Below are positions 2-36,166 of a DNA stretch of 64,000 nucleotides, piece by piece. A model generated the notes under the pieces. That model did no database searches. It worked only from the letters and a program-made list of their open reading frames with translations, and had not been told where the DNA came from. The DNA is from an uncultured Alphaproteobacteria bacterium. Lineage in GTDB: Bacteria > Pseudomonadota > Alphaproteobacteria > Rhizobiales > Beijerinckiaceae. Within the stretch, counting starts at the first letter, position 1, and every line of letters begins with the position of its first letter. Made by a program: the position numbers and the translations under genes. The stretch spans positions 10,737 through 74,736 of the forward strand of contig CAWGPR010000003.1 of assembly GCA_963824475.1 (NCBI GenBank). Reading direction: 5' to 3'.

Positions 2-1013
2 GGCGTCACCCTGCCGGCCTATCGCGGCGATATCGTCAACGACATCGAGTTCACGGCTTCGGCGCGCGAGCCCGACCCGCGCCGGCAGCTCGAGGCCTTC
101 CGCCAGTCCGCGGCGACCCTCAACCTTTTGCGCGCCTTCGCCAATGGCGGCTACGCCAACCTCGAGAATGTCCATCGCTGGATGCTCGGTTTCGTCAAGG
201 ACAGCCCCCAGTCCGAGCGCTACGAGGAGCTCGCTGACCGGATCACCGAGACGCTTGGATTCATGCGCGCCGTGGGCCTCGACCCCGAGGCGCATCCGGA
301 ATTGCGCTCAACCGACTTCTACACCTCGCACGAAGCGCTGCTGCTCGGCTACGAGCAGGCGATGACGCGGCTCGAATTCGACCTCGGGCGACTATTACGC
401 GACCTCGGGCCATATGATCTGGGTCGGCGACCGGACGCGCCAACTCGGCGGCGCTCACGTCGAATTCTGCCGGGGCTTGAAGAATCCGATCGGCCTCAAA
501 TGCGGCCCGTCGCTCAGCCCGGACGAGCTCATGCGTTTGATCGAAGTGCTTGATCCTGACGAGGAGCCTGGCCGGCTGACGCTGATCTGCCAATTCGGCG
601 CGGACAAGGTCGACGCCGCGCTGCCGCCGCTCTTGCGCGCGGCCAAACGCGAGGGCCGCAAGCTGCTGTGGGTCTCAGACCCGATGCATGGCAATACGAT
701 CAGGACCTCGACCGGCTACAAGACGAGGCCAACCGAACGCATCGCCCAGGAGGTGCGCAAGTTCTTCGCCGTCTGCCGCGCCGAGGGCGTCTACGCCGGC
801 GGCGTCCATCTTGAGATGACCGGCAAGAACGTCACCGAGTGCACTGGCGGAGCGCGCGCGATCTCGGAATCGGATCTGCACGATCGGTACCACACCTATT
901 GCGATCCGCGCCTCAATGCGGAGCAATCGATTGAAATGGCTTTCATGGTCGCCGATCTTCTTAAAGTCCAGCGGCTCTCCGCGCCGGAGCGACCGGTTCG
1001 GGCGGCCGAGTGA
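2..1013 (+). pseudogene. Class II 3-deoxy-7-phosphoheptulonate (DAHP) synthase; 5-prime end lies outside the window; frame broken by a 1-nt insertion at about 374-379
   Basis: Frame 2 from nt 2 reads [17 protein letters not shown]...[18 protein letters not shown]. Frame 3 continues [26 protein letters not shown]...DPMHGNT...VTECTGG. These are typical class II DAHP synthase motifs. The halves join if one A of GAATTC (374-379) is removed. Confidence 0.85.
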
Positions 1014-1036
1014 AGGCTCGGGCCTTGCACGCCCTG

Positions 1037-1150
1037 GATCGCGCTGATCGGCGGCGTGCGTTATTCTCTGCCGGGCGTGTTCGAGACCGTGCCGCTTAAG
1101 GCCGAGTTCAACGGCGCTCTATCTGCGGCGCGACCGATACGAGGCGTGGC
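1037..1150 (+). pseudogene. Internal fragment of an acyltransferase-3 family gene (decayed paralogue)
   Basis: GGVRYSLPGVFETVPLKAEFNGAL matches GGVHWSLPGVFETLPLKGQFNGSL of the intact gene at 2176-3351. There is nucleotide similarity too. The reading frame decays right after, and no N-terminal part is present. Confidence 0.6.
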
Positions 1151-1210
1151 TCTCACATTCCTTGCGTCCACTCGGGGCAGCTCGTGCTTCAAATGCGGAT
1201 CGTCCCGCCC

Positions 1211-1633
1211 TCACCAAATGACGGGCAGTTGCCTCAGCGAGACCCTCTCCACGATTTCCTGGGCCGCGGCTACGCCGACATTGTGAAAGACGCGGACCAA
1301 CTCCGCGACCATCCACTGGACGGCGCGAAAAAGGAACTCGCCATCCATGGCGTACGGCTTTACGTCACCGCCGACGCGACCGATCCCCCGGTCGCTGCGC
1401 ATCTCGTACACGGCAACCAGGACGCGAGGAATCTGAATCCTGACGGAGCGCGGGAACCTGGACGGAAAGTTCTCTAGCTCGCGGCACGCCTCAGGGAAGT
1501 TGTCAGGCTTTTGCGGGCCTGGGGCGTAATGGCCGTCCATGTGGCCTCTTAGAATCGTGTAAATAGTCTCACAGAGATTCCCAGAGTTCAAACCGACTTT
1601 CGGCCAATCGCGTGAAGACACATCGGTGAGCAC
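1211..1633 (-). CDS. Hypothetical protein (140 aa) in a scrambled lower-GC patch
   Basis: Open frame with non-repetitive composition. The 5-prime part sits in locally lower GC. No family recognised with confidence. Confidence 0.35.
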   Translation of the reverse strand: MLTDVSSRDWPKVGLNSGNLCETIYTILRGHMDGHYAPGPQKPDNFPEACRELENFPSRFPRSVRIQIPRVLVAVYEMRSDRGIGRVGGDVKPYAMDGEFLFRAVQWMVAELVRVFHNVGVAAAQEIVERVSLRQLPVIW

Positions 1634-2175
1634 GGCCTCATACGAACTCGATTAGCGGATCCAGGAGACCCACCGGGATCGTCAAAAGCGCGTCTCGGAC
1701 TGTGGTTGCCACGCCCTATCACCGGTGTTCGGTTCACCTTTCGGTAGCACGGCTTCGCTCTCACGCGCCAACCTTTTTTGGGCGCCGGCCGCGCGCCAGG
1801 CGTCGGTCGTGGCGGCCGAGGTTCAGCGGCTCTGGCAAAGGATCAACGCGAAGCTCGATGGGAAACGGCGCCTCAAAGCAGCGTAGGGCGGTTCCGACTT
1901 CGGCCAAATCGCTAATCGGCTTGGCCGGCTATCGCGCCCACAAAGTCGCCTGAACAATCGGTTGACGGGTCGACTGACAATGCAGTAGGCCAACTCCGGG
2001 CGGCCTTCTCCCTGGTCCGACCGGATGCGATACAGCTGGGTTATCGCATGTCATTCTTGGAAACTGCACGCTTATGGGCCCCTTCTCCCGCAACCAATGT
2101 CGTGACAACCTCCTTGGCCCACGCGGCAAGTGATCCTCAACGAAAGCTGGCTCGCCGCATCCGAGCGCGCATGCG

Positions 2176-3351
2176 GTGGCCGCTCGCGATCCCCCGCCCG
2201 GAGACCTGATGCGCCTCTCGGACTACGCGCAGAGCCGCGACAACAATTTCACTCTTCTGCGGCTGCTGGCGGCCTTTACGGTCGTTCTTTACCATAGTGG
2301 CCCTGCCCTCGGAATCGACGGGCGCGACCTGATTTACGACTATGTCGGGCGAGAGGTCGGCGAGATGGCGCTCGACATGCTGTTCGTGACGAGCGGTTTC
2401 CTTGTCACGGCGAGCCTGTTCAATCGCGGCGACCTCAATCATTTCCTGTGGGCCCGCGCTCTGAGGCTCTATCCCGCGCTCTGGCTCATGCTGCCGGTCA
2501 CCGTGTTCGTCCTCGGCGCCGCGCTGACCACCCTGCCGGTCAAAGACTATTTGACGTCGCAGACGACATGGGAATACGCGCGCAAGGGAGCGACAATCGT
2601 TGGCGGCGTGCACTGGTCGCTGCCGGGCGTGTTCGAGACGCTGCCGCTCAAGGGTCAGTTCAACGGGTCGCTGTGGACGCTGCCAATCGAAGCGCGAATG
2701 TACATTTACCTGGCGGTCGGCTGGATTCTTTTTGCGTGGGCGCCGCACATCCGAGTGCGGGCGCTGAGTTTCGCCGCGCCGGTCGCGGCAGCAGTGATGT
2801 TCGTCACGGCTGTGCGCGACCACGCGCATGGGTTGGCCAACAACGCGAACGTCGCGATCTTGATGTTTTTTATCGGCGCGTCCCTCTATTTCTGGCGCGA
2901 GAGCCTGTTCATCAATCGGGTGACCTTCGCCGCATTGCCGCTCATCGTCGCAGGCGCGGCGCTTATCGGACCAAGCGTCGCCTTCCCCGTCTATCTCCTA
3001 TGTGTGGCGCCGTTCGTGCTGCATCTCGCTTACATCCCCGGCGGGAAGATCAGGGATTTCAACGCTTGGGGCGACTATTCGTACGGCGTCTATATCTACG
3101 CTTTCCCCGTCCAGCAGACGCTTGCGCTTCTGTTTCCCAAGATGTCGCTCGCGGCGATGGCCGGAAGCGCCGGGGGGATCTCGTTTGGCCTTGCCTTCTG
3201 CTCGTGGAACCTGGTCGAGAAGCGGGCGATGGGGCTCAAGGATGTCTGCGCCGAGGCCACGTCTCGGGCGCTGCGTGCGGGCCTGGCCGCGGCGCCCTTT
3301 GCACGCTGGCGCGGCGCCCCCAAACCGGGCAAGCTTTACCCGAACAACTGA
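2176..3351 (+). CDS. Acyltransferase family 3 (OafA/YrhL-like) integral membrane O-acyltransferase
   Basis: N-terminus RDNNFTLLRLLAAFTVVLYHS is the typical acyltransferase_3 start. Multiple hydrophobic helices follow. The ATG at 2209 is an alternative start. Confidence 0.85.
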   Translation: MAARDPPPGDLMRLSDYAQSRDNNFTLLRLLAAFTVVLYHSGPALGIDGRDLIYDYVGREVGEMALDMLFVTSGFLVTASLFNRGDLNHFLWARALRLYPALWLMLPVTVFVLGAALTTLPVKDYLTSQTTWEYARKGATIVGGVHWSLPGVFETLPLKGQFNGSLWTLPIEARMYIYLAVGWILFAWAPHIRVRALSFAAPVAAAVMFVTAVRDHAHGLANNANVAILMFFIGASLYFWRESLFINRVTFAALPLIVAGAALIGPSVAFPVYLLCVAPFVLHLAYIPGGKIRDFNAWGDYSYGVYIYAFPVQQTLALLFPKMSLAAMAGSAGGISFGLAFCSWNLVEKRAMGLKDVCAEATSRALRAGLAAAPFARWRGAPKPGKLYPNN

Positions 3352-3487
3352 GCTTGGTTCTCCTTGGATTTATTTTCGGTTTCCTCGGGCTGTCGCTGGC
3401 CGGGCGGCCGGTCGTCTACGCTCGTCCACGAGAAAGGAGACCAGGGAACCCCCAGTCGGGAAGAAATCGTTGGTTTTTCGCGCTCGA

Positions 3488-3638
3488 CCCCTCGTCGGCG
3501 GCCGTCTCGGTCGCGATCGCGATCCTGTCATGGAAGCCGATCGAGGAGCGCGCGCTTGGCCTGAAGGGCGATTTCGCCGAGGCGACGTCGCGCGCCTTCA
3601 ATCTCGGCCTGGCCAAGATCGCTAGCGTCGTGCGCTGA
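3488..3638 (+). pseudogene. C-terminal remnant of an acyltransferase-3 paralogue
   Basis: ILSWKPIEERALGLKGDFAEATSRAFNLGLA parallels FCSWNLVEKRAMGLKDVCAEATSRALRAGLA at the C-terminus of the intact gene. No upstream coding continuity. Confidence 0.55.
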
Positions 3639-3645
3639 CGCGGAT

Positions 3646-4077
3646 TTGCGTTCGCCCACGCCACGCCGCATGAATCCCCGCCTGGAGGACTCCGTGATTC
3701 TCGAGACCTATACGCGTGTGTTTGTCGATACCAACTCAATCGAGGGCGCCATCGCCTTTTACAAAGCCTTGCTGTCAGGCGAGGAGAGCCTCCGCTTCCG
3801 CTATCCGGAAACAGGTCTGGAACTGGCGGCCGTCTCCTCGCCGCGCCTCTCGGTGCTGATCATCGCCGGACCGCCCGAGAAACGGGCGCCTTTTGAGGCG
3901 ACGCGTCTCACCATCAAGGTCGATGCTTTGGAACCTTTCGTGAAAGTCCTGAAGCAGGCCGAAGCCGAGCAACTCGAGCCAGTTCAGCCGACGCCGGTCG
4001 GGCGGAAGACCCGCTTCCGGCACAAGGATGGACTAGTCGTGGAGTACGTCGACCACACATCCCCGGGCGCGTCCTGA
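3646..4077 (+). CDS. VOC (glyoxalase/bleomycin-resistance fold) family protein
   Basis: About 130 aa with a beta-alpha-beta-beta-beta style pattern (VILETYTRVFVD...LTIKVDALEPFV...DGLVVEYVDH). Start is uncertain: ATG 3670, or GTG 3694 preceded by GGAGGA. Confidence 0.55.
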   Translation: MRSPTPRRMNPRLEDSVILETYTRVFVDTNSIEGAIAFYKALLSGEESLRFRYPETGLELAAVSSPRLSVLIIAGPPEKRAPFEATRLTIKVDALEPFVKVLKQAEAEQLEPVQPTPVGRKTRFRHKDGLVVEYVDHTSPGAS

Positions 4078-4150
4078 GGCTGCCACGCCGACGCCGGATT
4101 TGCCCCCCATCCGATTGCGCGCGCCTTCCACGCCGCGCTAAATCTCGCTC

Positions 4151-5899
4151 ATGGCCGCTTCCATCAGCAACCGCCTCACAATTGCGCTCGCGCAAATCCC
4201 AGCGATCGTTGGCGACATCGCGGGCAACCGCGACCGTCTGCGCAAAGCGCGAGCGGAGGCCGCCGCCTTCGGCGCCGACATCGTGATGGCGCCGGAACTC
4301 TACCTCTCCGGCTATCCGCCCGAGGATCTGGTGCTGAAGCCTGCCTTTCAGGAAGCCTGCCGCGCGGCTTGCGAGGAGCTGGCGCGCTTGACCGCCGACG
4401 GCGGGCCGGCGGCGCTGGTCGGCCTGCCCTGGGTCGGCGAGGACGGCAAGCTGCACAACGCCATGGCGCTCCTCGACGGCGGGAGGATCGAGGCGGTGCG
4501 GTTCAAGTTCGACCTGCCCAATTATGGCGTGTTCGACGAGAAGCGCGTCTTTGCGCCGGGGCCGTCGCCGGGACCGATCGTCTTTCGCGGCGCGCGCGTC
4601 GGCGTTCCGATCTGCGAGGATATCTGGGGGCCCGACCCGGTCGAGTGCATCCTCGAAACCGGCGGCGAAATTCTGCTGGTCGGCAACGCGTCGCCTTATG
4701 AGCGCGACAAGCTCGCCATCCGCCAGAACGTCGCGGTGGCGCGCGTCGTCGAGAGCGGCCTGCCGCTCATCTATCTCAACATGGTCGGCGGTCAGGACGA
4801 GCTCGTGTTCGACGGCGGCTCGTTCGCGCTCAACGCCGACCGCACCTTAAGCGCGCAATTGCCTGCCTTCCGCCCAATGGTGGCGCGCACCGTGTGGGAG
4901 CGCGGCGAGGGCGGCTGGCGCTGCGTCGAAGGCCCGCTCGAAGTGGTCGAGGAGGGCGACGAAGCGGACTATGCGGCCTGCGTGATGGGTCTGCGCGACT
5001 ATGTCCAGAACAACCGCTTTCCGGGGGTGGTGCTTGGCCTCTCCGGCGGCGTCGATTCGGCTTTGTGCGCCGCGATGGCGGTTGACGCGCTGGGGGCTGA
5101 GCGCGTGCACGCGGTGATGCTGCCCTATCGCTTCACCTCGAACGAATCGCTCTCGGATGCGGCCCAATGCGCCAAAGCGCTTGGCGTCCGCTACGATATC
5201 GTGCCGATCGCCGAACCGGTCGAGGGCGTGGAGCATGCGCTCGCGCGGATGTTCGCCGGCAAGGCGCGCGACATCACCGAAGAGAACATCCAGAGCCGCG
5301 CCCGGGGCCTGATCCTGATGGCGATCTCCAACAAGACCGGCGCGATGGTGGTGACGACCGGCAACAAGTCGGAAATGTCGGTCGGCTACGCCACGCTCTA
5401 CGGCGACATGAACGGCGGCTTCAACCCGATCAAGGACCTTTACAAGATGGAGGTCTTTCGCCTCGCCGCGCTGCGCAACCGCTGGAAGCCGATAGGAGCA
5501 CTCGGGCCGGATGGCGAGGTGATTCCTCAAAACATCATCGTCAAGCCGCCGAGCGCGGAATTGCGCGAGAACCAGAGGGATGAGGATTCGCTGCCGCCCT
5601 ATCCGGTGCTCGACGGCATTCTGCACGGACTGGTCGAAAAAGAGATGCGCATCGCCGACATTGTGGCTGAGGGTTACGATTCGGAGACGGTGCGCAAGGT
5701 CGAGCGTCTGCTTTATCTCGCGGAATACAAGCGCCGCCAGTCGGCACCGGGGGTCAAGGTGGGGCCGAAGAATTTCGGCCGCGACCGGCGCTATCCGATC
5801 GTCAACCGCTTCCGCGACCTGGGCCTTAAGGCGCAAAAGCCGGATGCGTCGATTGCGCCGCTGAAGTCGGCGGGGACGAGCGAACGGTTCGAGGAGTAG
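4151..5899 (+). CDS. nadE: Glutamine-dependent NAD+ synthetase (CN-hydrolase domain plus NAD synthetase domain)
   Basis: N-terminal nitrilase-like domain (ICEDIW). C-terminal LGLSGGVDSA P-loop and TGNKSEMSVGYATLYGDM motifs. Confidence 0.95.
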   Translation: MAASISNRLTIALAQIPAIVGDIAGNRDRLRKARAEAAAFGADIVMAPELYLSGYPPEDLVLKPAFQEACRAACEELARLTADGGPAALVGLPWVGEDGKLHNAMALLDGGRIEAVRFKFDLPNYGVFDEKRVFAPGPSPGPIVFRGARVGVPICEDIWGPDPVECILETGGEILLVGNASPYERDKLAIRQNVAVARVVESGLPLIYLNMVGGQDELVFDGGSFALNADRTLSAQLPAFRPMVARTVWERGEGGWRCVEGPLEVVEEGDEADYAACVMGLRDYVQNNRFPGVVLGLSGGVDSALCAAMAVDALGAERVHAVMLPYRFTSNESLSDAAQCAKALGVRYDIVPIAEPVEGVEHALARMFAGKARDITEENIQSRARGLILMAISNKTGAMVVTTGNKSEMSVGYATLYGDMNGGFNPIKDLYKMEVFRLAALRNRWKPIGALGPDGEVIPQNIIVKPPSAELRENQRDEDSLPPYPVLDGILHGLVEKEMRIADIVAEGYDSETVRKVERLLYLAEYKRRQSAPGVKVGPKNFGRDRRYPIVNRFRDLGLKAQKPDASIAPLKSAGTSERFEE

Positions 5900-6053
5900 A
5901 GGGTGGGTGGCGCCTCGCGAGCCGCTGCATTTTTTGCTCTTATAGCGTCAGCTGTTTGGACAGAGTTCGACCTAGGGCTGTGTTCGCGCCTCGCGCCGGA
6001 CTGCTTCAGCCACTTTCGGACACCAGGCAACTCATTTCGGGAGGGATTCAGAC

Positions 6054-7486
6054 ATGCTGGGAAATATGGCTCGCCTCGCTTATGCCGGGCTGGTCGGCGC
6101 CGCCTTCGCCGGCGGCGGGTCTTCCAGAGCGGCAGCCGAGCCGGCGAGCGAACAGGATGCGCATGCGATCGGCGTCGAGGCCTATCTCTACTTCTACCCT
6201 CTCGTCACCATGGACCTGACCCGCAAGCAGCTGACGAACGTCGCCAAGCCGGAGGGCTTCGAGGCGCCGATGAACGCCTTCGCCAGCGTTCCCGCTTTCT
6301 TACGGCGGACATGAAAGTCGTCGTCCGGCCAAACTTCGACACGCTCTATTCGAGCGCCTGGCTCGACTTGACCAAGGAGCCGGTGATCGTCTCGGTCCCC
6401 GACACGCATGGGCGCTATTACCTGCTGCCGATGCTGGACATGTGGACTGACGTGTTCGTCTCGCCTGGCTGGCGCACGACGGGAACGGCGGCCGGCGACT
6501 TCGCCGTGACGCCTCCCGGCTTTACCGGTTCGCTCCCGGCGGGCGTCATTCGCATCGACGCGCCCACGCCCTATGTCTGGATCATCGGCCGCACCAAGAC
6601 GGATGGGCCGTCCGACTACGACGCCGTGCACGCGATCCAGGCCGGCTTCAAAATCACGCCGCTCTCGCAATGGGGCAAGGCTGCCGAACCTGTCGTCGGC
6701 CATGTCGATCCCGATATCGACATGAAGACGCCGCCGAAGGTCGCGGTCGATGCGATGCCGGCGGGCAAGTTCTTCGCCTACGCCGCCGAAATCCTCAAAT
6801 CGCAGCCGCCGCATATCACCGACCAGCCGATCCTCGCCCGCATGCGGCGAATCGGGATCGAGCGCAGCAAGAGTTTCGACATCGACAAGGTTGATCCGGC
6901 GATCAAATCCGCGCTTAAGAGCGCGCCGGAAGACGCCCAGAAGCTGATGGCGTGGAAGGTGAACAGCCTTGCCCGCGTCGTCAACGGCTGGTCGATGAAC
7001 ACCGACACGATGGGCGTTTACGGCAATTATTACCTCAAACGCGCGATCATCACCCAGTTGGGTCTCGGCGCGAACCTGCCGGAGGACGCGATCTATCCGA
7101 TCAACCTCGCGGACGAGTCAGGCAAGCCGCTGGATGGCGCGAGCGCCTATACTTTGCACTTCGAAAGGGGCGCCGCGCCGCCGGCCAACGCCTTCTGGTC
7201 GATCACGCTCTATGACGCTCAGGGCTACCAGGTGGCGAACAGCCTCAACCGGTTCGCTCTCAGCAGCTGGATGCCGTTCAAATATGATCCGGACGGCTCC
7301 CTCGACCTCTATGTCCAGAACGCGAGCCCTGGCGCCGACAGGCAAGCAAACTGGTTGCCGGCGCCAAAGGGACCGTTCAACCTCACGATGCGGATCTATG
7401 CGCCAAAGAGCGAGGCGCTGACCGGAAAGTGGAGCCCGCCGCCGGTCACGAAAGAGAGCCAGCCAACCTTGGCGCCGGCGCAATAG
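6054..7486 (+). pseudogene. DUF1254/DUF1214 two-domain secreted protein; frame broken at about 6297-6302
   Basis: Frame 3 gives a signal peptide plus AHAIGVEAYLYFYPLVTMDLTRKQ...PMNAFASVPAF. Frame 2 continues LTADMKVVVRPNFDTLYSSAWLDL...RYYLLPMLDMWTDVF. A 1-nt loss in the CTTTCTT run explains the break. Confidence 0.8.
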
Positions 7487-7622
7487 CTTGTCCTCACAAG
7501 CGAGGGCGCCGCACGCGGGGCGGATCGTCGCCGCCCCCGCGCGGTCCTTCGCGCCTCCCAGCTATCCTGGGACCTGATATAAGCGACATCGCCAGGGTCG
7601 AAGCCCCCACGGAGGCATTTCC

Positions 7623-8066
7623 ATGCAAAACGTCGCGTTCAAGGCCGGAGATACGATCATCTGCGAGGGCGACGAGGGCGATACGGCGTTCTTCATCGTC
7701 AGCGGAGCGGTCGACGTCGCAGTCGGCCGCGGCGCCAATGCGAGAGTTGTCGGCAGGCTTGAGATCGGCGACGTATTCGGAGAAATGTGCCTGATCGAGC
7801 CGGGGCCGCGATCCGCGACCGTCACCGCGGCGTGCGATACGGAATGCCTCGCGGCCTCGTATCAAGAGTTCATCGCCGCAATCGAGGAGAACCCGGAACG
7901 CGCCGTCGGGTTCATGAAAACGCTGGTCCGCCGTCTCCGCAAAATGAACGAATTGCTCGAGAGCGCGAGCCCGGAGCGGCGCGGGCTACGCGCCATGCTC
8001 CTCGATTGCCAGCCGTCCGGAGGCTCCCCCGAAGCCGCCGCCCTATCCTGGACGATGCTGTGGTGA
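7623..8066 (+). CDS. Standalone cyclic-nucleotide-binding (cNMP/CAP-effector) domain protein, no HTH
   Basis: FKAGDTIICEGDEGDTAFFIVSG...GDVFGEMCLIEPGPRSATVTA shows the beta-barrel and phosphate-binding cassette (FGE...RSA). Only 147 aa. GGAGG lies upstream. Confidence 0.8.
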   Translation: MQNVAFKAGDTIICEGDEGDTAFFIVSGAVDVAVGRGANARVVGRLEIGDVFGEMCLIEPGPRSATVTAACDTECLAASYQEFIAAIEENPERAVGFMKTLVRRLRKMNELLESASPERRGLRAMLLDCQPSGGSPEAAALSWTMLW

Positions 8067-8165
8067 GTCGCCGGCCGCCCAAGCGTCGCCCCTTCCGACG
8101 ATCGGTCTTAACTGTCGTCTATTGTTCACAATCCAGCGTTAATCGAAGGGGAGCAGGGGGAGCCC

Positions 8166-8411
8166 ATGACCGATGTCTCGGCCGATCTTCAGCGGGAGCT
8201 GGACCAATTGCAGGCGGCCTACAAGGCGGCCGTGGACAATTGGGTGGCTGCGATCCGCGAGGAGGAGGCGCTCGCCTCCGGCAACCATAACGTCGCGGAG
8301 CTCGACAAATGGGAGGGCGCCCATTACCGCGAGCATAAGCTGCACAAGGAAGTCGATTTCCGCAAGCGCCTCTATGAAGACGCGCTGCGCCGCGAATTCT
8401 TCGGCTTCTGA
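8166..8411 (+). CDS. Small (81 aa) helical hypothetical protein
   Basis: Clean ORF behind a GGGGGAG RBS-like stretch. Charged coiled-coil-like composition. Confidence 0.5.
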   Translation: MTDVSADLQRELDQLQAAYKAAVDNWVAAIREEEALASGNHNVAELDKWEGAHYREHKLHKEVDFRKRLYEDALRREFFGF

Positions 8412-8460
8412 TCTTCCGAGCTCCTGGCGCGACTGATCGAGCCGCGGCTTCGATCTTGTC

Positions 8461-8640
8461 GAACGCCGAATTCAACCGATCTTGACAGGGCGTCGCAGTT
8501 CACGCCAAGTCGAACCGAAGGACTTCGGGGGCCGAGGCGCAGGACCGGCGCGACCGGGCCGTCCGCAGGGCAGCCTGGTGGAGCGTCCGACTGTCGGATG
8601 AACAAAATCGCCGCCGATCCCACTCAACCTTATCGCAGCC
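8461..8640 (+). repeat. Copy 1 of a duplicated leader plus 5-prime CDS segment of the PycTM-like genes (contains TTGACA at 8482-8487)
   Basis: Near-identical to 9119-9301: ...TTCAACCGATCTTGACAGGGCGTCGCAGTTCACGCCAAGTCGA...GGAGCGTCCGACTGTCGGATGAACAAAATCGCC. Confidence 0.85.
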
Positions 8641-9059: not shown

Positions 9060-9118
9060 TTCAGGCGCCCGCGGCCGGGGTCGCTCGGCGCGTTTGAACC
9101 GGCCGCTCCGGCCGCGTC

Positions 9119-9301
9119 GAAAGCCGAAATTCAACCGATCTTGACAGGGCGTCGCAGTTCACGCCAAGTCGAGCCGAAGGAGTTCGGGGGGCCGAGGCCG
9201 AGGACCGGCGCGGATGGGCCCGTCCGCCGGCCGGCCTTGTGGAGCGTCCGACTGTCGGATGAACAAAATCGCCGTCGATCCCGCTCAACCTTATCGCCGC
9301 C
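9119..9301 (+). repeat. Copy 2 of the duplicated leader plus 5-prime CDS segment (TTGACA at 9141-9146)
   Basis: See copy 1. Only a few substitutions and indels by eye, while the downstream CDS is clearly more diverged. Confidence 0.85.
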
Positions 9302-9732: not shown

Positions 9733-9817
9733 ACATGATCCACTCGGTTCGATGGCGCAACGCATTACCGGCGGCTGCCGCCCGAGGCGCCTCCTCGCTT
9801 GCCTCGCAGGGCGGCTG

Positions 9818-11726: not shown

Positions 11727-11736
11727 GCAGTCCAGG

Positions 11737-26574: not shown

Positions 26575-26629
26575 TTCCTCCCACTCAAGACGCCCGGTCG
26601 CGCCGGGCCGACGCATTCGCCAAATCCGC

Positions 26630-27814: not shown

Positions 27815-27818
27815 CGGC

Positions 27819-28878
27819 TCAGCCTCGAATGCCGAGCAGCTTGAGGTTGGTCGCGCGGTCGGCGCCGGTGGCGGCGAAGTCGTCGAACACACGGTCGGTC
27901 ACTTCGATGATATGATCGGCGATGAACTGCGCGCCCTTGCGTGCGGCGACCTCGGGATGCTGCAGGCAGTCCTCCCATTCGTACACCGCCCACCCCGCGA
28001 AGTCATAGCCCGAGAGCTTGGCGAAGATCGCGTTGAAATTGACCTGTCCATCGCCGAGCGACCGGTCCCGTCCGGCGCGCTCGAGCCATGCCTTGTAGCC
28101 CCCATAGACGCCCTGTTTCGGCGTCGGGTTGAACTCCGCGTCCTTGACGTGGAACATCTTGATCCGGTCGTGATAGGCGTCGATGAAGCCGAGATAGTCC
28201 ATGCATTGCTTGATGAAGTGGCTGGCGTCGTAATTGATGTTGCAGCGCTTGTGACCGCCGACCGCGTCGAGAAACATGTCGAAGGTATCGCCGTCGAAGA
28301 CGTCTTCGCTGGGGTGGATTTCGAAGCAGAGGTCGACGCCGTTCTCGTCGAAGACGTCGAGGATCGGCTTCCAGCGGCGGGCCTGCTCTGCGAAGCACTC
28401 CTCGATCAACCCGGCGGGCCGTTGCGGATAGGGATAGAAATAGGGCCAAGCGAGGGAGCCGGTGAAGCTCACATGCTCGGTGAGGCCAAAGCGGCGCGAG
28501 ACGCGAGCCGCCTTGCGCACCTGGTCGGCCGCCCAAAGTCGCCGCTTCTCCGGGGCACCGCGCACGGACGCCGGGCATTGACCGTCAAACAGCGCGTCAT
28601 AGGCCGGATGAACGGACACCATCTGGCCCTGAAAATGAGTGGAAAGCTCGCTGATCGCGATGCCGATGTCGGCGAGCATTCCCTTGATCTCGTCGCAATA
28701 GGTCTCGCTGTCATAGGCGCGATCGAGGTCGAACAAGCGGTGGTCCCAGGTCGGAATTCTGAATCGCCTTGTATCCGTAATCCTTGGCCCATCGCGCGAT
28801 TGAGGGTAGTGAATTGTGCGGCGGCGTATCGGTTGCGAACTGAGCCAGAAACAGACCCGGGCCCTTGATGGTTCGCAT
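27819..28878 (-). pseudogene. Sugar phosphate isomerase/epimerase (xylose isomerase-like TIM barrel) protein; frame broken by a 1-nt insertion at 28754-28759
   Basis: The N-terminus MRTIKGPGLFLAQFATD...WAKDYGYKAIQ is in one frame. ...FDLDRAYDSETYCDEIKG...ELSTHFQGQMVSVHPAYD continues in another. Removing one A from CAGAATTCC (minus strand) gives IQIPTWDHRLFDLDRAY. Confidence 0.8.
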
Positions 28879-29081
28879 CGCGTTTTCTCCCTCAGCGGCC
28901 TCCGCCGCCTTCATGCAGAAATATTGTGTCGCATCATCGATACTGGCAAAGAACTTCCATTTGTCAATGGCGATTGATCGCCAGCAGGGGCTCTTCTCGC
29001 CAAGAAATTTCTAGAGTTTGACATTCGGAATTTCTGATCCAAGATTGGGCGAACAAGAGAACCTCTCGGGGAGGGCGGCGC

Positions 29082-29852
29082 ATGAACGGACGGGTGGTCG
29101 TGGTCACCGGGTCAACCCAGGGCGTCGGCCTGGCCATCGCGCAAGCGGCGGCGCGCGCCGGCGCCGAGGGTCTCGTGGTGACGGGCAGAGACGCGGGCAA
29201 AGGCGCGACCGCAGCGGCGGAGGTCGAGCGAAGCGGCGCGCCTGCCCTGTTCGTGGCGGCGGATCTCGAGCACGCCAGCGCGCCGGATCTGATCTTCGAC
29301 GCCGCGCTCAAGCGGTTCGGCCGCGTCGACGCGCTGGTCAATTCCGCCGCTCTCACCGACCGGGGATCGCTCGCGGAAGCTGACCTGAGGCTCTGGGAGC
29401 GGCTCTTCGCCGTCAACGCGCGAGCCCCATTCTTTCTGATGCAGCGGCTCATCAACCACCTGCGCGAGCGCGGAGCGCCCAGCTCGATCGTCAACATCCT
29501 CTCGGTGCACGCTCGCGGCGGGGCTCCGGAGCTCGCGGTCTACGCCTCGACGAAGTCGGCGCTGGCCGGGCTGACCAAGAACGCGGCGAACGCCCATCGT
29601 TTCGACCGCATTCGCGTCAACGGCGTCATTCTGGGCTGGGTCGACACCCCTGCCGAACGGCATATGCAGGCGGTCACGCTTGGCAAAGGCGAGGGATGGC
29701 TCGCCGAAACCGCCGCGAAAATGCCGTTCGGGCGCCTTTTGACCCCGGACGACGTCGCGCGGCTCTCGCTGTTTCTTCTGTCCGACGCCTCGGAGCCGAT
29801 GACCGGCGCTCTGATTGACTACGCGCAGCACGTCTTCGGCGGACTGGACTGA
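29082..29852 (+). CDS. SDR family oxidoreductase
   Basis: RVVVVTGSTQGVGLAIA, NSAA, YASTKSAL. Confidence 0.85.
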   Translation: MNGRVVVVTGSTQGVGLAIAQAAARAGAEGLVVTGRDAGKGATAAAEVERSGAPALFVAADLEHASAPDLIFDAALKRFGRVDALVNSAALTDRGSLAEADLRLWERLFAVNARAPFFLMQRLINHLRERGAPSSIVNILSVHARGGAPELAVYASTKSALAGLTKNAANAHRFDRIRVNGVILGWVDTPAERHMQAVTLGKGEGWLAETAAKMPFGRLLTPDDVARLSLFLLSDASEPMTGALIDYAQHVFGGLD

Positions 29853-29863
29853 GGCCCGAGGCG

Positions 29864-31348
29864 ATGCGACGCCTCAATCGCAGCCGTTTGTTGGAGCTGG
29901 CGCCATCGGTGCGCCAGCCGCAATATGATCGCGACAACCTTCAGATTGGCATCGCGCATATCGGCGTCGGGGCTTTCCATCGCTGCCATCAGGCCGAATT
30001 CATCGACGATATGCTCGAGGCGCGATTCGGGCGATGGGGCGTGCTCGGCGTGAACCTCGTGGCGCCGAGCCTCACCGATCTCCTGGCCCCGCAGGACTGT
30101 CTCTATTCCCGCACGCTACGACAGGACGAGCACGCCGAGACCCGTATCATCGGCGCGCTGCGCCACGTGATCGACGTCAAGGACAAGGCGAGCGCCGAGG
30201 CCGCCATCGCCGCGCTCGGCGGGCCTGAGATTTCTGTCATGACGATCACGGTCACCGAAAAAGGCTATTGCTTGACGCCGTCGACCGGCGCGCCCGATTT
30301 CGACAATCCGGCGCTTCGCGCGGACCTTGAAGGCGCCTTTCCACCACGCACGCTCCTCGGCCTGCTGGCGCTTGCGCTCGATCGGCGGCGGCAGGCTGCG
30401 GGAGCGCCGCTGACGCTGATCAGCTGCGACAACGTTCCGTCCAACGGTGCGCGGCTCGGTGCGGCGATGCTGGAGTTTGCGGGTTTGCGCTCGGCGGCGC
30501 TGACGCGGTGGATCGGGGACCGCGTCAGGTTCCCATGCACGATGGTCGACCGGATCGTGCCGGCGACAACGCCGGACGACGTCGAGGAAGTCTCTGGCGC
30601 GCTTGGCGCGCTTGATTCCGCCGCGGTTGTCGGCGAGCCGTTCCGGCAATGGGTCATCGAGGATAAATTCGCCGGCGAGCGGCCGCCTCTGGACCTCGTA
30701 GGCGCGCAGTTCGTCGCCAACTCGAAGCCTTACGAACAGATCAAGATGCGCGTCCTCAACGCCGCGCAATCGACATTGGCGCACCAAGGCGCGCTCGTCG
30801 GCCACGAATTCACTTATCAGGCCGCAGCCGATCCGGTGCTTGCGGCCCTCACTCGCAGGATGCTCGAGCGCGAAACATCCGCCACGCTGCCGAAGCTCGC
30901 GGGAATGGAGGCTGCTCCGTACATAGATCTGTCGATGACGCGCATCCGCAACGCCGCCATTCGTCACCGATGCCATCAGATTGGCGCCGACGGATCGCAG
31001 AAGATTGTCCAGCGTCTCATCGATCCTTTACGCGAGCGTCTTGCAGCCAGCCAATCGGCCGACTTGCTCACGCTCGCGGTCGCCAGCTGGATCGCCTATG
31101 GCTTGAGCGGCGCGCGTCGCTTCGGGGCGCGTTGGACGCCGGCGGACCCTTATGCGGACATCGTCATCGGAATTGGCGAAAAGGGCTCCGACTGGGGAGA
31201 ATTGGCCAAGGCCGTTCTCGCCATCGCCCCCATCTTCGGCGCGGATATGGCGCGCTCGCAGCTCATCGAACCGATCGCGCGGCATTTGCGCGGCCTGCTT
31301 GACGGAGACGTGCGCGGCTACCTGACGGAGCGCCTCGGCGATGAATAG
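29864..31348 (+). CDS. Mannitol dehydrogenase family protein (polyol or hexuronate oxidoreductase)
   Basis: IAHIGVGAFHRCHQA, TITVTEKGY, SCDNVPSNG, MVDRIVP motifs. Confidence 0.85.
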   Translation: MRRLNRSRLLELAPSVRQPQYDRDNLQIGIAHIGVGAFHRCHQAEFIDDMLEARFGRWGVLGVNLVAPSLTDLLAPQDCLYSRTLRQDEHAETRIIGALRHVIDVKDKASAEAAIAALGGPEISVMTITVTEKGYCLTPSTGAPDFDNPALRADLEGAFPPRTLLGLLALALDRRRQAAGAPLTLISCDNVPSNGARLGAAMLEFAGLRSAALTRWIGDRVRFPCTMVDRIVPATTPDDVEEVSGALGALDSAAVVGEPFRQWVIEDKFAGERPPLDLVGAQFVANSKPYEQIKMRVLNAAQSTLAHQGALVGHEFTYQAAADPVLAALTRRMLERETSATLPKLAGMEAAPYIDLSMTRIRNAAIRHRCHQIGADGSQKIVQRLIDPLRERLAASQSADLLTLAVASWIAYGLSGARRFGARWTPADPYADIVIGIGEKGSDWGELAKAVLAIAPIFGADMARSQLIEPIARHLRGLLDGDVRGYLTERLGDE

Positions 31349-32297
31349 AGGCAGGTCCATCGAACGGTCCGATCGCGCCGCGGCAGTCGCGAACGCCGGC
31401 GTCGGCGCAGCGCTCGGCTACTCGCGACCTGGAAGCTATGAAGAGCTTCGGGCGGTGCTGTCCTCCGGGACCGCCCGGCTCCCCAAGAAGCTTCGCCAGG
31501 TTGCGATCCATCTTTGGCAGCATCCGACCGCGGTCGCGCTCGGCACCGTGACCAGCGTGGCCGGCGAGGCCGGCGTGCAGCCCTCGACCTTGGTGCGGTT
31601 CGCGCAAGCCTTCGGTTATAGAGGATTTTCTGACCTGCAAGAGGTGTTCAAGGCCCATCTTGCGGATGGAGGCCGGGGGAGCCGCGACCGAGCGCAACCG
31701 CATTGGGAGGGCGCTTCGAGCGGGGAGGCCGCGAGCCTTGTCGACGGGTTCATAGGCTCGTCCGCAACATCGCTCGCTCGCGTGCGGGACCGGCTCGACC
31801 TCGCCCAATTCGAGGTCATGAGCCAGACGCTGGCGGCGGCGGATCTCATCTACATCATCGGCTCCAAGCGCGCCTTCTCGCTGGTGAGCTACGTCTCGCT
31901 CGCGCTCGCCAATCTCAGCGTGCGCAACCTTGCGCTCGATAATGTCGGCTCGAACGCATTCGAGCTCCTCCGTTGCGCATCGGCCGCCGACGTGGTCTTT
32001 GCCGTCAGCTTTACGCCTTACAATTCCATTACGCCGGAATTGGCCGCTTCCGCCGCCCAGCGCGGCGTTCCGATCGTATCGATGACCGACAGCGCGTTCA
32101 GCCCGTTGGTTCCGGTTTCGAAGGCCTATATCGAGGTGATTGAAGAGAGTTTCTCCGGGTTCAAGTCGCTTTCCGCGACGCTCGCGGTGGCGATGGCGCT
32201 GGTGCTGCGCGTCGAGCAGCGGCGCAGCGAAGCGGCCTCGCCCGTGCACGCCCCGTCGAGCTCGGTCCGGCCCCGCCTGAAGCTGGAAGACGATTGA
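31341..32297 (+). CDS. MurR/RpiR family transcriptional regulator (HTH_6 plus SIS domain)
   Basis: LPKKLRQVAIHLWQHP...SVAGEAGVQPSTLVRFAQAFGYRGFSDLQ HTH. SIS-like IYIIGSKRAF. Confidence 0.85.
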   Translation: MNRGRSIERSDRAAAVANAGVGAALGYSRPGSYEELRAVLSSGTARLPKKLRQVAIHLWQHPTAVALGTVTSVAGEAGVQPSTLVRFAQAFGYRGFSDLQEVFKAHLADGGRGSRDRAQPHWEGASSGEAASLVDGFIGSSATSLARVRDRLDLAQFEVMSQTLAAADLIYIIGSKRAFSLVSYVSLALANLSVRNLALDNVGSNAFELLRCASAADVVFAVSFTPYNSITPELAASAAQRGVPIVSMTDSAFSPLVPVSKAYIEVIEESFSGFKSLSATLAVAMALVLRVEQRRSEAASPVHAPSSSVRPRLKLEDD

Positions 32298-32336
32298 TCC
32301 GCGCAAGCGGCCTTAAGCTTTTCGGGAGGATATCAG

Positions 32337-33413
32337 ATGCGCAAATGGCGGATCGTCGGCTTGAGTTTCGAACACATGCACATGGGCGACCTCCTGCGCG
32401 AGGCCTACGAGCATCCCAATGCCGAGATCGCCGGGGTGTGCGACAAGGACAAAGCGAGGATGGCAGACACGATCGCCAACTTCTCCATCCCCACCGAGCG
32501 CGTCTATCGCGATGCCGCGCAATGCGTGCGAGAGGCGCATCCGGATCTTGCAATCCTCTGTCCGGCGACCGCGCGACATGCGGACGTGGTCGAAGAGGTC
32601 GCCGCGCTCGGCGTCGACATCCTGCTGGAAAAGCCTTTCGCCGCCTCGCTCGCCGACGCCGACCGGATCCTTGCGGCCATCAAGAGGTCGGGAGTGCGGC
32701 TCGCCATCAACTGGCCTTTGCGCTGGTATCCGCCGCATGTGACGACCAAGCGGCTGATCGACGAGGGGCTCATCGGCGACGTGATCGAGGTTCACTTTTA
32801 CGACGGCAACCGCGGTCCGCTCTATCATCGCGCCGACAAGGTCGTCGTGTCGGACGAGGATGTGCGGCGCGAGAAGCCGACGTCATGGTGGTACAGCAAG
32901 GTCGCGGGCGGCGGCAGCCTGCTCGACTATCTGGGCTACGGCGCAACGCTCGGGACCTGGTTCATGAACGGCGAGGCGCCGATCGAGGTGACCGCAGTCG
33001 TCGATCAGCCGCAGCGACTCGAAGTCGACGAGCATTCCATCACCATCTGCCGCTACGCCCGTGGCCTGTCGAAACTCGAAACGCGCTGGGGGACGTTCAC
33101 CGATCCCTGGACCACGCAGCCGCAGCCCAAGTGCGGTTTTGTCGTCGTCGGTTCGGAAGGCACGATTTCGAGTTATGACTACGAGCCGCATGTCAGTGTT
33201 CAAACTCGCGTCGACCCGACGATCCGCCAAATTCCTGCCGACGAATTGAAGGCGCCGTTTCGCAACCCGGTTGAATACGTGCTCCATTGCAAGGAGCAGG
33301 GCCTGCCGTTCGAGGGGCCTCTGGACCCCCCGCTCTGTCGGACCGCGCAGCGCATTGTCGACACTGCGGCGCTCTCCGCGCGTGAGCGGCGCACGCTGGC
33401 TCTGCTGCCATGA
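32337..33413 (+). CDS. Gfo/Idh/MocA family oxidoreductase
   Basis: WRIVGLSFEHMHMGDLL start, LLEKPFA motif. GGAG upstream. Confidence 0.8.
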   Translation: MRKWRIVGLSFEHMHMGDLLREAYEHPNAEIAGVCDKDKARMADTIANFSIPTERVYRDAAQCVREAHPDLAILCPATARHADVVEEVAALGVDILLEKPFAASLADADRILAAIKRSGVRLAINWPLRWYPPHVTTKRLIDEGLIGDVIEVHFYDGNRGPLYHRADKVVVSDEDVRREKPTSWWYSKVAGGGSLLDYLGYGATLGTWFMNGEAPIEVTAVVDQPQRLEVDEHSITICRYARGLSKLETRWGTFTDPWTTQPQPKCGFVVVGSEGTISSYDYEPHVSVQTRVDPTIRQIPADELKAPFRNPVEYVLHCKEQGLPFEGPLDPPLCRTAQRIVDTAALSARERRTLALLP

Positions 33414-34519
33414 CTGAGATGGAAGCGGGGAAGGCCGAAGGACCTTCGGCCGACGATTATGCGTTGGTCGCCAAGGCCGCGGTGGAGGTCGAAGCGCCGG
33501 ACTTGCCCTATCGTCCCCCAATGCCGCGCAACCGTGGCGCGCCGATCGCGCTGGTCGGCGCGGGCGGCATCAGCGGGGCGCATCTCGACGCCTATGCGCG
33601 CCACGGCCTCAACGTCGTTGCGATCTTCTCGCGCGACCTCGATCGCGCCCGTGCGCGGCGCGACGCCTATTTCCCTGGAGCGCGGGTCACCGACGATTTC
33701 AATTCTCTGTTGCGCGATCCCAACGTGAGCGTTCTAGACCTCACCGCGCACGCGGACGTCCGCCTCGACCTCATGCGGCGCGCGCTGAACGCTGATAAGC
33801 ACGTGCTGTCGCAAAAGCCGTTCGTCGAGGACCTCGACGACGGCCGCGAACTCGTTGAGCTTGCGGAGCGGCGCGGCCTCAAGCTCGCGGTCAATCAGAA
33901 CGGCCGCTGGGCGCCGCATCTCGCCTATATCCGGGAGGCGGTCTATGCTGGCCTCATCGGCGAAGTCACTGGCGTTCATGTCGAGATCCGCTGGAACCAC
34001 GGCTGGATCGCCGGAACGCCGTTCGAAGCCATGGACGATCTCATCCTCTGGGATTTCGGCATCCATTGGTTCGATTTTCTCGCGAGCGTCATCGACGACC
34101 GCGCCCATCTCGTTCATGCGACGGCCGCCCGAGCCGCCGGACAGACCGCGCGGCCCCCGCTGCTGGCTCAGGCGCTCATCGCCTTTGACGGCGGTCAGGC
34201 CTCGCTTGTTTTCGACGGCGCGACCCGATATGGCGCGCGCAATTCGACTTCGGTCATCGGCGCGAAGGGCGTCGTCTCCAGCATGGGGCCCGACCTCGGC
34301 CATCAGTCGGTCGAACTCTATACCGAAGCGGGAGTCGCCAGGCCGCGTCTTACGGGCGCCTGGTTCAACGACGGCTTCGCCGGCGCCATGGGCGAACTCT
34401 TGTGCGCAATCGAAGACGGGCGGGAGCCGCTGAACTCGGCGCGCGGCAATCTTTGGTCGCTCAAGCTGTGTCAGGCGGCGCTGCGCTCGGTCCAGAGCGG
34501 TATCCCCGCGCCTGTCTGA
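33410..34519 (+). CDS. Gfo/Idh/MocA family oxidoreductase
   Basis: IALVGAGGISGAHLDAY, VLSQKPF. 4-nt overlap with the upstream gene. Confidence 0.8.
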   Translation: MTEMEAGKAEGPSADDYALVAKAAVEVEAPDLPYRPPMPRNRGAPIALVGAGGISGAHLDAYARHGLNVVAIFSRDLDRARARRDAYFPGARVTDDFNSLLRDPNVSVLDLTAHADVRLDLMRRALNADKHVLSQKPFVEDLDDGRELVELAERRGLKLAVNQNGRWAPHLAYIREAVYAGLIGEVTGVHVEIRWNHGWIAGTPFEAMDDLILWDFGIHWFDFLASVIDDRAHLVHATAARAAGQTARPPLLAQALIAFDGGQASLVFDGATRYGARNSTSVIGAKGVVSSMGPDLGHQSVELYTEAGVARPRLTGAWFNDGFAGAMGELLCAIEDGREPLNSARGNLWSLKLCQAALRSVQSGIPAPV

Positions 34520-34590
34520 GCGACGGAGACAACCGAACCGTCAGCAGGGCGTCGCCGTCGCCTGTGATAAGATCGCGGGGGAGAAACGCG

Positions 34591-36166
34591 ATGGCGAAGG
34601 GAGACGTTCAAACCTCGGAAAGGCCGCTGCGGCCGCTTCAGCTCGACCCCGAGCGCGCCAAGCGAGCCGACAGGCCGCCCTATGCGATCGTCGACATCGG
34701 CTCGAACTCGATCCGGCTCCTGGTCTATGACCAACTCGGCCGGGCGCCGCTGCCACGCTTCAATGAAAAATCGCTTGCCCGTCTCGCCGAAGGACTGGCT
34801 GACACTGGCGCAATCGCGCCTGACCATTTTCGTCGAGCGGTCGAGGCCGTGCGGCGATTCCGCGCCATCGCCGAGGCCATGGGCGTTGCTCGAAATCGAC
34901 GCCGTGGCGACGGAGGCCATGCGTCGCGCTTCGAACGGGCCGAAGCTTGCTCTGGCGATTGAAGCGGAGTCAGGCCTGAAGGTGCGCATCCTCAGCGGGG
35001 CCGAGGAAGCCCGGTTCGCGACGCTCGGCGTCATTTCCGGCTTCTTCCGGCCAGTCGGGGCGGTCGGCGACATGGGCGGCGGCAGCCTCGAAGTCGCGGA
35101 AGCGATCGATGAGCATGTGGGAGATGGCTGGGTCAGTCTGCCGCTCGGCGCCCTGCCGGTCGAGGCGATGCTGGCGGCGGGCGTCTCGGCGGCGAAGCGG
35201 CAAATCGACGAAATTCTGCGTTCGCGCCTACCACGCGCGCTGGCAAGGCCGGTGTTCTACGCGGTCGGTGGCGGCTGGCGGGCGCTGGCGAAGGCCCACA
35301 TGGACGCGGTCGGCGCGCCGGTCAGAGTCGTCCACGGCTATACCCTCGCCGCCGCCGAGGCGCGAAAATTCGCGCGAGCAGTCTCGCGGCTCAGCGCAGC
35401 GAAACTGGCGGCGACGCCGGCCGTGGCGGAACGCCGGGCGCGCACCTTGCCGGCGGCGGCGCTGACGTTGGATCGCGTGCTGAAATACCTGAAGCCCGGA
35501 CGCGTCGTCTTTTCCGCTCTCGGCCTGCGCGAGGGATTTCTCTATTCGCAGCTGAGCCAAGAGGAACAATATCTCGATCCCCTGATCGAGGGCGCGCAGC
35601 TGATCGGCCTGCCGCTCGCGCGCGTGCCCGAATTCGCGCCCGAGCTTGTGTCCTGGACCGAAAACCTTTTTTCGCCCGAAACCGCCCCTGAGAAGAGGCT
35701 GCGCGTCGCCGTCTGCGCGCTGTCCGATATCGCCTGGAGAGACGCGCCCGACCTCCGGGCGGAAGAGAGTTTTCGCCGGCTGCTCGAGTTTCCATTCATC
35801 GGCGTCACCCACCCGGAGAGGGTGTTCATCGCTGCCGCGATTCACGCGCGCTACGTCGGCCGACCGGACGCGCCGTGGCTGAGCCCGGCCATTAAGCTGC
35901 TCACGCCGGCGGATCGCCGCCGGGCGCAGATCCTCGGCCGCGCGATCCTGCTCGCCTATCGCTTTTCCGGCGGCGTGCCGGCCATGCTGGAAAGCGCGCG
36001 ATTGCGCATCGAGCCAGATAGCGTGCGGCTCGAAGTCGCCGCGGCCGCCCGCGCCCCCGACAGCGAAGTGGTGATCGACCGGCTCAAGCTGCTCGCCAGC
36101 GCCATTGGCGTCAAGCACAGCGAGGTCGTCGACATCGACGCGGTCGCCGAGCGGGCTGATGAATGA
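34591..36166 (+). pseudogene. ppx: Ppx/GppA family exopolyphosphatase/phosphatase; frame broken by a 1-nt insertion at 34892-34897
   Basis: YAIVDIGSNSIRLLVYD...AIAEAMGVA is in frame 1. (L)EIDAVATEAMRRASNG...GDMGGGSLE is in frame 2. Reading CGAATC instead of CGAAATC gives GVARIDAVATEAMRRA. Confidence 0.85.

Follow-up and report, generated by a model that had tools for sequence, protein, structure and literature searches.

The three frameshifts that divide conserved genes at GANTC sites in the window (the whole stretch of 64,000 nucleotides of DNA that was analysed) are, with a probability of roughly 0.88, errors in the consensus of a long-read assembly (most likely one made from Nanopore reads only) and not mutations. 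Each is a one-base insertion of A or T within a GANTC pentamer, and the same window encodes a methyltransferase of the CcrM type. The features concerned are the following.

2..1013, plus strand: class II DAHP synthase gene, 5' end truncated by the window edge (site 1)
1644-1649: GAACTC in non-coding DNA, a fourth candidate, possibly GACTC plus one A
6054..7486, plus strand: DUF1254/DUF1214 gene, with a one-base deletion in a C-rich stretch at ~6294-6304, not GANTC
27819..28878, minus strand: xylose-isomerase-like TIM-barrel (AP_endonuc_2) gene, split at 28754-28759 (site 2)
34591..36166, plus strand: exopolyphosphatase (ppx) gene, split at 34892-34897 (site 3)
51464-52687, plus strand: CcrM-type N6-adenine DNA methyltransferase (Pfam N6_N4_Mtase and RAMA)
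53645 (TTG start) to 52702 (stop), minus strand: prmB gene, with the TTG start and first codons in the adjacent frame
53634-53637, minus strand: outside GANTC, a G run at prmB codons 4-5 (coding strand GGGG) that has probably lost one base

At site 1 the observed sequence, CTCGAATTCGACC at 371-383, contains GAATTC at 374-379 on the plus strand, which corresponds to the GANTC site GATTC with one A duplicated, and the class II DAHP synthase is frameshifted, being read in frame 2 until ~375 and in frame 3 beyond. The Pfam PF01474 match is divided in the same way: frame 2 holds profile positions 122-245, and frame 3 holds 249-438. In the alignment of site 1, ten homologues read MTRL[D/N]STSGDYY, and full-length homologues share 94% identity with the corrected protein. 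GATTC is found here in the relatives L004, L007, L009 and L010; L009, a JGI metagenome contig assumed to be of short-read origin, matches the window at 98.1% identity and encodes an intact DAHP synthase of 462 aa. Of the assemblies of the same species whose contigs are named in the Flye style, L005 has the insertion GAATTC and L007 lacks it; the latter carries GATTC->GATTTC at another GANTC site of the gene, 218 nt downstream, and the gene is broken at differing positions in three assemblies of the species. Downstream of the insertion common to the window and L005, the two sequences differ at 14 positions; read in the corrected frame, 12 of the differences are synonymous and 2 non-synonymous, so this frame has been kept under purifying selection. 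The sharing of the insertion by the window and L005 may alternatively be read as shared descent, which would speak against an artefact.

At site 2, GAATTC at 28754-28759 represents, on the coding (minus) strand, GATTC with one duplicated A, and it frameshifts the TIM-barrel gene; the match to Pfam PF01261 in the downstream piece begins at profile position 22. The relatives read YKAIQIP[T/A/S]WD, with which the corrected N-terminus of the window protein (...YKAIQIPTWD) agrees, and the region is one base shorter in three of three relatives (L001, L002 and L003). At this point GAATC stands in L003, and the GGATTT of L001 and L002 does not conform to GANTC. The GANTC ancestry of site 2 thus depends on L003 and on the Q-I-P reading, two of the three relatives being without the motif. 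At site 3, ppx is frameshifted by GAAATC at 34892-34897 on the plus strand, that is, GAATC plus one A. Its profile matches are PF02541 from position 58, together with PF21697, and TIGR03706 from position 72; the relatives read MGVA[R/G]IDAVATEAMRRASNG, and over residues 1-517 they share 89-91% identity with the corrected protein. The corresponding sequence is GAATC in L001 and L003, and GGATC in L002. As sites 2 and 3 were compared only with relatives at ~85% identity (98.1% at site 1), the comparison leaves some room for a recent real mutation in the lineage of the window at these two sites. Whether the extra base appears as A or T is a matter of strand; in all cases it is a second copy, on one of the strands, of the second-position adenine of GANTC.

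These results bear out the initial annotation, which had reported three frameshifting A/T insertions within GANTC and had claimed that removal of one base restores a conserved protein and recreates the motif: every string was found where it had been placed, and the corrected proteins match homologues at all three sites. The comparison with orthologues in close relatives, which it had proposed as a check, shows the extra base to be absent from the relatives at sites 2 and 3 and, at site 1, to be shared by L005 and missing from L004, L007, L009 and L010. A known long-read artefact is almost certainly at work here, and the three genes broken at GANTC should be treated as intact.

The presence of CcrM at 51464-52687, likewise put forward earlier, is borne out by the two Pfam domains and by an alignment to the CcrM structure PDB 6PBD (E=2e-146, residues 14-365 of 366). 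Besides a beta-class N6_N4 MTase domain, the protein has the C-terminal domain of CcrM, and it resembles Caulobacter CcrM along its full length; close homologues (89-91% identity) are named 'modification methylase'. By orthology, the enzyme would be specific for GANTC and cell-cycle-regulated. Intact GANTC sites are depleted in the window (134 vs 372+-17.5 expected), and this depletion together with the CcrM orthologue suggests that GANTC is methylated in the organism. The hexamers GAANTC/GANTTC amount to 163 (136+-11 expected), an excess which was left out as evidence since it is too large for errors to account for.

Five genes in the window are frameshifted, and two of them carry one-base deletions in C/G runs outside GANTC. 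The frameshift list of the initial annotation held for the three GANTC cases and was incomplete, as the DUF1254/DUF1214 gene and prmB had been missed. The N-terminus of the former is in frame 3 and the remainder in frame 2; the corrected protein (477 aa) is 94% identical, over its full length, to P0121 and P0122, and L005, L006 and L007 are one base longer than the window at the deletion site. In prmB, position 3 of the TIGR03533 profile aligns 12 codons past an in-frame stop, and a search for an ATG, GTG or TTG start in 65 codons of the TIGR03533 frame found none. Here L008 is one base longer than the window. This sequence was reached via P0276, a homologue of CcrM. It shares only ~80-87% identity with the window and contains many errors of its own; at such a distance a clean list of indels across 40-54 kb could not be drawn up, and it was used for prmB only. 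The two plain C/G-run deletions fit an error-bearing long-read assembly. The fourth candidate, at 1644-1649, reads GAACTC in the window and in L005, and GACTC in L007.

Several leads from the search for further frameshifts were discarded. A sliding codon-score scan for frame switches found site 1 and the DUF1254 gene and failed for sites 2, 3 and prmB. In a delete-and-rescore test covering all of the 163 GAANTC/GANTTC sites, ORF trimming acted as a confounder, and the leads at 19266, 27876 and 62922-63063 proved false according to Pfam coverage and alignments. Seemingly window-specific indels at 26597 and 26618 are intergenic, upstream of the start codon of a binding protein, and the small ORFs at 8.1-10.3 kb, at first taken for possible gene fragments, turned out to be complete paralogues in tandem.

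Broken genes are numerous in those relatives that bear MFD names or have Flye-style contig names; the NadE gene of L004, for example, has four frameshifts, and the NadE of the window aligns in frame to PDB 4F4H. For the MFD MAGs (L001 and L002), Nanopore reads were the only input, processed with Flye and a single Medaka 1.8.0 round (PMC12313526). The ERZ25039xxx assemblies are probably also of Nanopore origin, as judged only from their Flye-style contig names and error load, and the window itself would likewise derive from Nanopore data.

The insertions are concentrated at GANTC far beyond chance. GANTC accounts for three of the five frameshifts in the window and for all three frameshifting insertions, and a random insertion has a chance of 0.005-0.015 per event of yielding GAANTC/GANTTC, according to the null model chosen. 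For three of four frameshifts (without prmB) this gives P = 6e-7 to 1.4e-5, and with prmB, which was found later, for three of five, P of about 1.6e-6 to 3.6e-5 (binomial, same p). A replicate was obtained from L005, L006 and L007, three 99%-identical assemblies which are independent of the site selection in the initial annotation: 5/29 one-base indels are strict GANTC->GAANTC/GANTTC changes (0.2 expected, P=2e-6), and 8/29 fall no further than 5 nt from GANTC on either side (P=1.3e-5). GAATC->GAAATC is seen in L005 and L007 at window-equivalent position 1434, and GACTC->GAACTC in L005 at 1992. The context CGANTCG occurs at five of eight affected sites, as compared with a background of 22% (P=0.016). 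The non-randomness asserted in the initial annotation is thereby substantiated, at P of about 1e-6 to 4e-5 in the window and at the value given above in L005-L007. In L001 and L002, two Nanopore MAGs of a related species, none of nine singleton one-base indels lies at GANTC, which indicates that the effect is not universal.

Miscalling of a methylated motif would account for these observations. In this Roseiarcus-like alphaproteobacterium, CcrM would methylate the GANTC adenine on both strands, and at a minority of the sites (~3-4% in the window) the signal of the methylated site may be called as GAANTC, the methylated adenine being duplicated on one strand. The extra base would then be retained by the polisher, and ppx, like the genes of DAHP synthase and the TIM-barrel enzyme, would be intact in the cell. 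Methylation is the probable cause of the miscall. Nanopore assembly errors at GANTC have been reported in Agrobacterium (PMC12710330) and Brucella (PMC12392509), and errors at methylation motifs strike only some occurrences of the motif (PMC12392509). As in other such errors (Dam GATC, Dcm CCWGG, GANTC), which cluster at or a few bases from the motif of the encoded methyltransferase, recur between assemblies, survive depth and corrupt coding sequences (PMC12710330, PMC12392509), the three insertions and the 1644 candidate lie inside GANTC, well within the ~5 nt that delimits this class, and the organism encodes the cognate enzyme. Published GANTC-linked errors are, however, mostly substitutions (PMC12710330), whereas those in the window are one-base insertions duplicating the methylated adenine, and are known from the assembled sequence alone.

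It is unlikely that the events are ordinary indel errors in short runs (A->AA, AA->AAA), independent of methylation and located in GANTC by coincidence, through the A/T-containing contexts that a GC-rich genome offers. Such errors would be in keeping with the fact that every event extends an A or T run, with the two C/G-run deletions of the window (~6294-6304 and 53634-37), which belong to the classic class of homopolymer and high-GC long-read indels, and with the many indels away from GANTC in L005-L007 and L001/L002. However, runs of one or two bases are not normally error-prone, and a null model of A/T duplication places only ~1.5% of opportunities in GANTC, as against three of three window insertions and 5/29 replicate indels. 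The change GACTC->GAACTC (window 1644 and L005 1992) duplicates precisely the CcrM-methylated adenine, and the preference for CGANTCG among the affected sites also argues against run length as the explanation.

Real frameshifts, in which CcrM-methylated GANTC sites act as mutational hotspots for +A and the broken genes would be true pseudogenes, or null alleles that are polymorphic in the population, are very unlikely, even if the pattern is strongly non-random, a single-base indel divides a conserved ORF in two, as in genuine frameshift pseudogenes, and the site 1 insertion is common to two different assemblies. True pseudogenes would be recognised by relaxed selection downstream of the lesion and by the same lesion in independent sequence of the lineage. 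At site 1 the corrected frame is instead still under purifying selection between the window and L005, and the lesion is missing from the same-species L009 and L007, with the DAHP synthase gene varying in its breakpoint among the assemblies of one species. Moreover, the affected genes are conserved housekeeping genes that are intact in hundreds of relatives, and to our knowledge there is no mechanism by which adenine methylation drives +A insertion. It is highly improbable that GANTC sites hemi- or fully methylated by CcrM are in vivo hotspots at which the methylated adenine is duplicated, that soil populations carry recurrent and possibly reversible +A null alleles of housekeeping genes, and that the insertion in the window and L005 is an instance of this recurrence. 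Functional frameshifts, by programmed ribosomal frameshifting or transcriptional slippage, have a negligible probability: both gene halves do stay open and conserved, and nothing further speaks in their favour, but all relatives have single uninterrupted ORFs at these positions, a conserved slippery heptamer is absent, the runs are just 2-3 nt long, and neither the site nor a slippery sequence is conserved among relatives, the insertion varying even within the species. The preference of the initial annotation for a methylation-linked artefact over a mutational hotspot is accordingly supported by every test applied to it: by L009, by the inconsistency between L005 and L007, by selection on the corrected frame, by the replicate, by the two C/G-run deletions and by published precedent.

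GANTC-linked long-read error is a known artefact, and its recognition here has practical value only and adds nothing new on the biology of CcrM. If ~3-4% of GANTC sites gain a base, as extrapolated from 4 events at 138 sites in 64 kb, hundreds of false frameshifts would be expected per genome of several Mb in this clade. Such errors would inflate pseudogene counts, split or truncate genes such as those for DAHP synthase, ppx and prmB, and distort reconstructions of metabolism that draw on catalogues of Nanopore-only MAGs. By its simplicity, the signature GANTC->GAANTC/GANTTC lends itself to the screening and repair of alphaproteobacterial long-read assemblies.

Five genes in the window are frameshifted. 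The initial annotation had listed three frameshifts, each a single A/T insertion inside a GANTC (CcrM) site; all three are confirmed and lie at GANTC, but the list was short. The claimed insertion strings are present in the DAHP synthase gene (site 1, GAATTC, 374-379), a TIM-barrel gene (site 2, GAATTC, 28754-28759) and ppx (site 3, GAAATC, 34892-34897). Besides DAHP synthase, the features concerned are:

6054..7486: DUF1254/DUF1214 gene, with a one-base deletion at ~6294-6304 in a C-rich stretch, not at GANTC
28878 to 27819, minus strand: TIM-barrel gene, frame broken at site 2
34591..36166: ppx, with a frame switch at 34892-34897 (site 3)
51464-52687: ORF of a CcrM orthologue (Pfam N6_N4_Mtase and RAMA; match to PDB 6PBD)
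52702-53645: prmB (L3 glutamine methyltransferase, TIGR03533), with a lesion at 53634-53637 in a GGGG run

The class II DAHP synthase Pfam model is matched in one frame over profile positions 122-245 and in the next over 249-438, with the junction at ~375, where ten homologues read MTRL(D/N)STSGDYY. In the TIM-barrel gene the N-terminal 40 codons (MRTIKGPGLF...YKAIQ) are out of frame with the remainder. The assignment of CcrM to 51464-52687 holds, as the product matches the Caulobacter CcrM structure 6PBD over nearly its full length (E=2e-146). All GANTC events are duplications of the position-2 adenine of the motif, on one strand, as the change from GACTC to GAACTC shows unambiguously; a non-coding GAACTC at 1644-1649, which is GACTC in L007 (a same-species locus), is a fourth candidate insertion of this type. 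Two neighbouring GANTC sites also differ at 1420-1445, where GAATCTGAATCC is GAATCTGAAATCC in the same-species locus L005 and GAAATTTAAATCC in L007; the differences cluster at this double motif, inside or near an unannotated minus-strand ORF (1211..1633).

A scan of a genome collection with the corrected ppx as query gave three syntenic loci with ~85.7% DNA identity over 24588-36158, two in MFD metagenome-assembled genomes (L001 and L002) and one in a Roseiarcus MAG with a MEGAHIT-style contig (L003). All three lack one base of the window at site 2 and again at site 3; GAATC is found at site 3 in L001 and L003, and at site 2 only in L003. Their proteins read YKAIQIP(T/A/S)WD at site 2 and MGVA(R/G)IDAVATEAMRRASNG at site 3. 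No further window-specific frameshift occurs within genes over the 11.6 kb covered by these loci. Apparent window indels at 26597 and 26618 were rejected as gene breaks, both being upstream of a start codon.

Homologue searches and contig look-ups for the left end of the window gave relatives of two kinds. The first is L004, with 90.7% identity and GATTC at site 1. The second comprises the same-species loci L005, L006 and L007, each from a different ENA metagenome assembly whose contig names are Flye-style; they are 94.6-98.2% identical to window 1-9071 and ~99% identical to one another. GAATTC at site 1 is common to the window and L005; L007 has GATTC, and its DAHP synthase gene is broken elsewhere, by GATTC to GATTTC at window-equivalent 593 and by an extra A at 98. 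A single scan of JGI metagenome contigs, with a pattern of the flanks plus one optional base, turned up L009. This contig aligns to window 1-1013 at 98.1% identity with a single gap, has GATTC and encodes an intact 462-aa ORF. With L009 as reference, the one-base indels of the window, L005 and L007 are insertions in every case. Had a real frameshift arisen before the window and L005 split, the codons downstream of it would no longer have been under selection; their DAHP synthase genes differ by 18 substitutions, 14 of them synonymous once the frame is corrected, and 3' of the common insertion 12 are synonymous and 2 non-synonymous. A housekeeping gene broken at different places in three same-species assemblies and intact in a fourth sequence has the look of consensus error.

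Strong depletion of GANTC is usual in CcrM-bearing bacteria, and the window holds 134 intact sites versus 372+-17.5 in dinucleotide shuffles. The GAANTC/GANTTC hexamers are slightly over-represented (163 versus 136+-11). The per-event chance that a random insertion turns GANTC into GAANTC/GANTTC is 0.005-0.015 across the null models used, of which the strictest admits A/T duplications only. Three of four frameshifts at GANTC then have P = 6e-7 to 1.4e-5, and three of five ~1.6e-6 to 3.6e-5. As the pattern had been seen post hoc, replication was sought in the 29 one-base indels among L005, L006 and L007: five are strict GANTC to GAANTC/GANTTC changes (expected 0.2, P=2e-6) and eight lie within 5 nt of GANTC (P=1.3e-5). 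In all cases that an ORF or L009 can decide, the error is in the longer allele, and a CGANTCG context is favoured at affected sites (5/8 versus 22% background, P=0.016). None of the nine singleton indels of L001 and L002 is at GANTC, which counts against a universal effect.

The MFD MAGs are Nanopore-only assemblies, made by Flye and polished once with Medaka 1.8.0 and a 2022 model (PMC12313526). Nanopore assembly errors are reported to concentrate at methylated motifs, GANTC among them, in agrobacteria (PMC12710330) and in Brucella, where just some motif occurrences are affected (PMC12392509), and are lowered by methylation-aware models (PMC12710330, PMC12392509). The related assemblies are plainly error-rich: NadE carries four frameshifts in L004 and is in frame along PDB 4F4H in the window, and split genes are numerous in L005-L008. 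Given this precedent and error load, the three insertions are best explained by an artefact that arises at 6mA in GANTC during basecalling and polishing, on a presumed Nanopore origin of the window and presumed GANTC methylation in this organism. Methylated adenine would provoke an error in basecalling or polishing that leaves an extra base in the consensus, with ordinary C/G-run deletions as background. The methylation-linked artefact originally preferred is supported by the scattered DAHP synthase breaks, the intact L009, the 12:2 ratio and the 5/29 replicate. It belongs to a known artefact class, which here takes the form of an insertion signature; it is relevant to the annotation of Nanopore-only alphaproteobacterial MAGs and is no biological discovery.

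The two additional broken genes, neither at GANTC, emerged from a completeness check by Pfam on all substantial ORFs and codon-usage scans. In the DUF1254/DUF1214 gene the first 80 codons lie in another frame; one base added at ~6294-6304, where L005, L006 and L007 have one base more, yields a 477-aa protein 94% identical over its full length to the homologues P0121 and P0122. prmB lacks a start codon in frame: the coding signal is strong over 65 codons before the first ATG, GTG or TTG, and the TIGR03533 equivalog match starts at profile position 3, just 12 codons past an in-frame stop. The TTG start and the four opening codons are in the adjacent frame, on the other side of GGGG 53634-53637, where L008 (a related contig) is one base longer, and the lesion is probably a one-base deletion in this run.

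A second class of one-base indels in L005, L006 and L007 consists of a C present or absent right before G (ATA[C]GTG, GAT[C]GATC, GGT[C]GAG, TTT[C]GAC and others); eight cluster where the HisKA and HprK genes of L007 break (especially L005 16.4-18.0 kb), and the class may reflect a second motif-linked error or a low-coverage patch. The contigs of sample ERZ25039552 (L004 12924-14648; L008 993-4868) are very error-rich, with split Opp permease, SBP_bac_5 and XerC/D-like integrase genes.

At 7623-10273 three paralogous membrane proteins of ~150-200 aa stand in tandem after a cNMP-binding protein and an ORF of 81 aa, and one of the three weakly matches the Pycsar effector TM domain (PF18967); the counterpart in L005-L007 has one copy and then an IS element. 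A PIN-domain (VapC-like) toxin gene (48143-48526) lies between ruvB (47060..48100) and ruvA (48777..49391). The order mnmE, mnmG, rsmG, parA, parB at 58000-63683 indicates that the window is chromosomal and near the replication origin. Past parB, a stretch of ~120 nt (63680-63798) matches, on the reverse strand and at 83% identity, the DNA immediately 3' of the DAHP synthase gene of L005, L007 and L009. That DNA is part of a ~475 bp block absent from the window at 1013-1042, and the stretch may represent a small repeat or mobile element.
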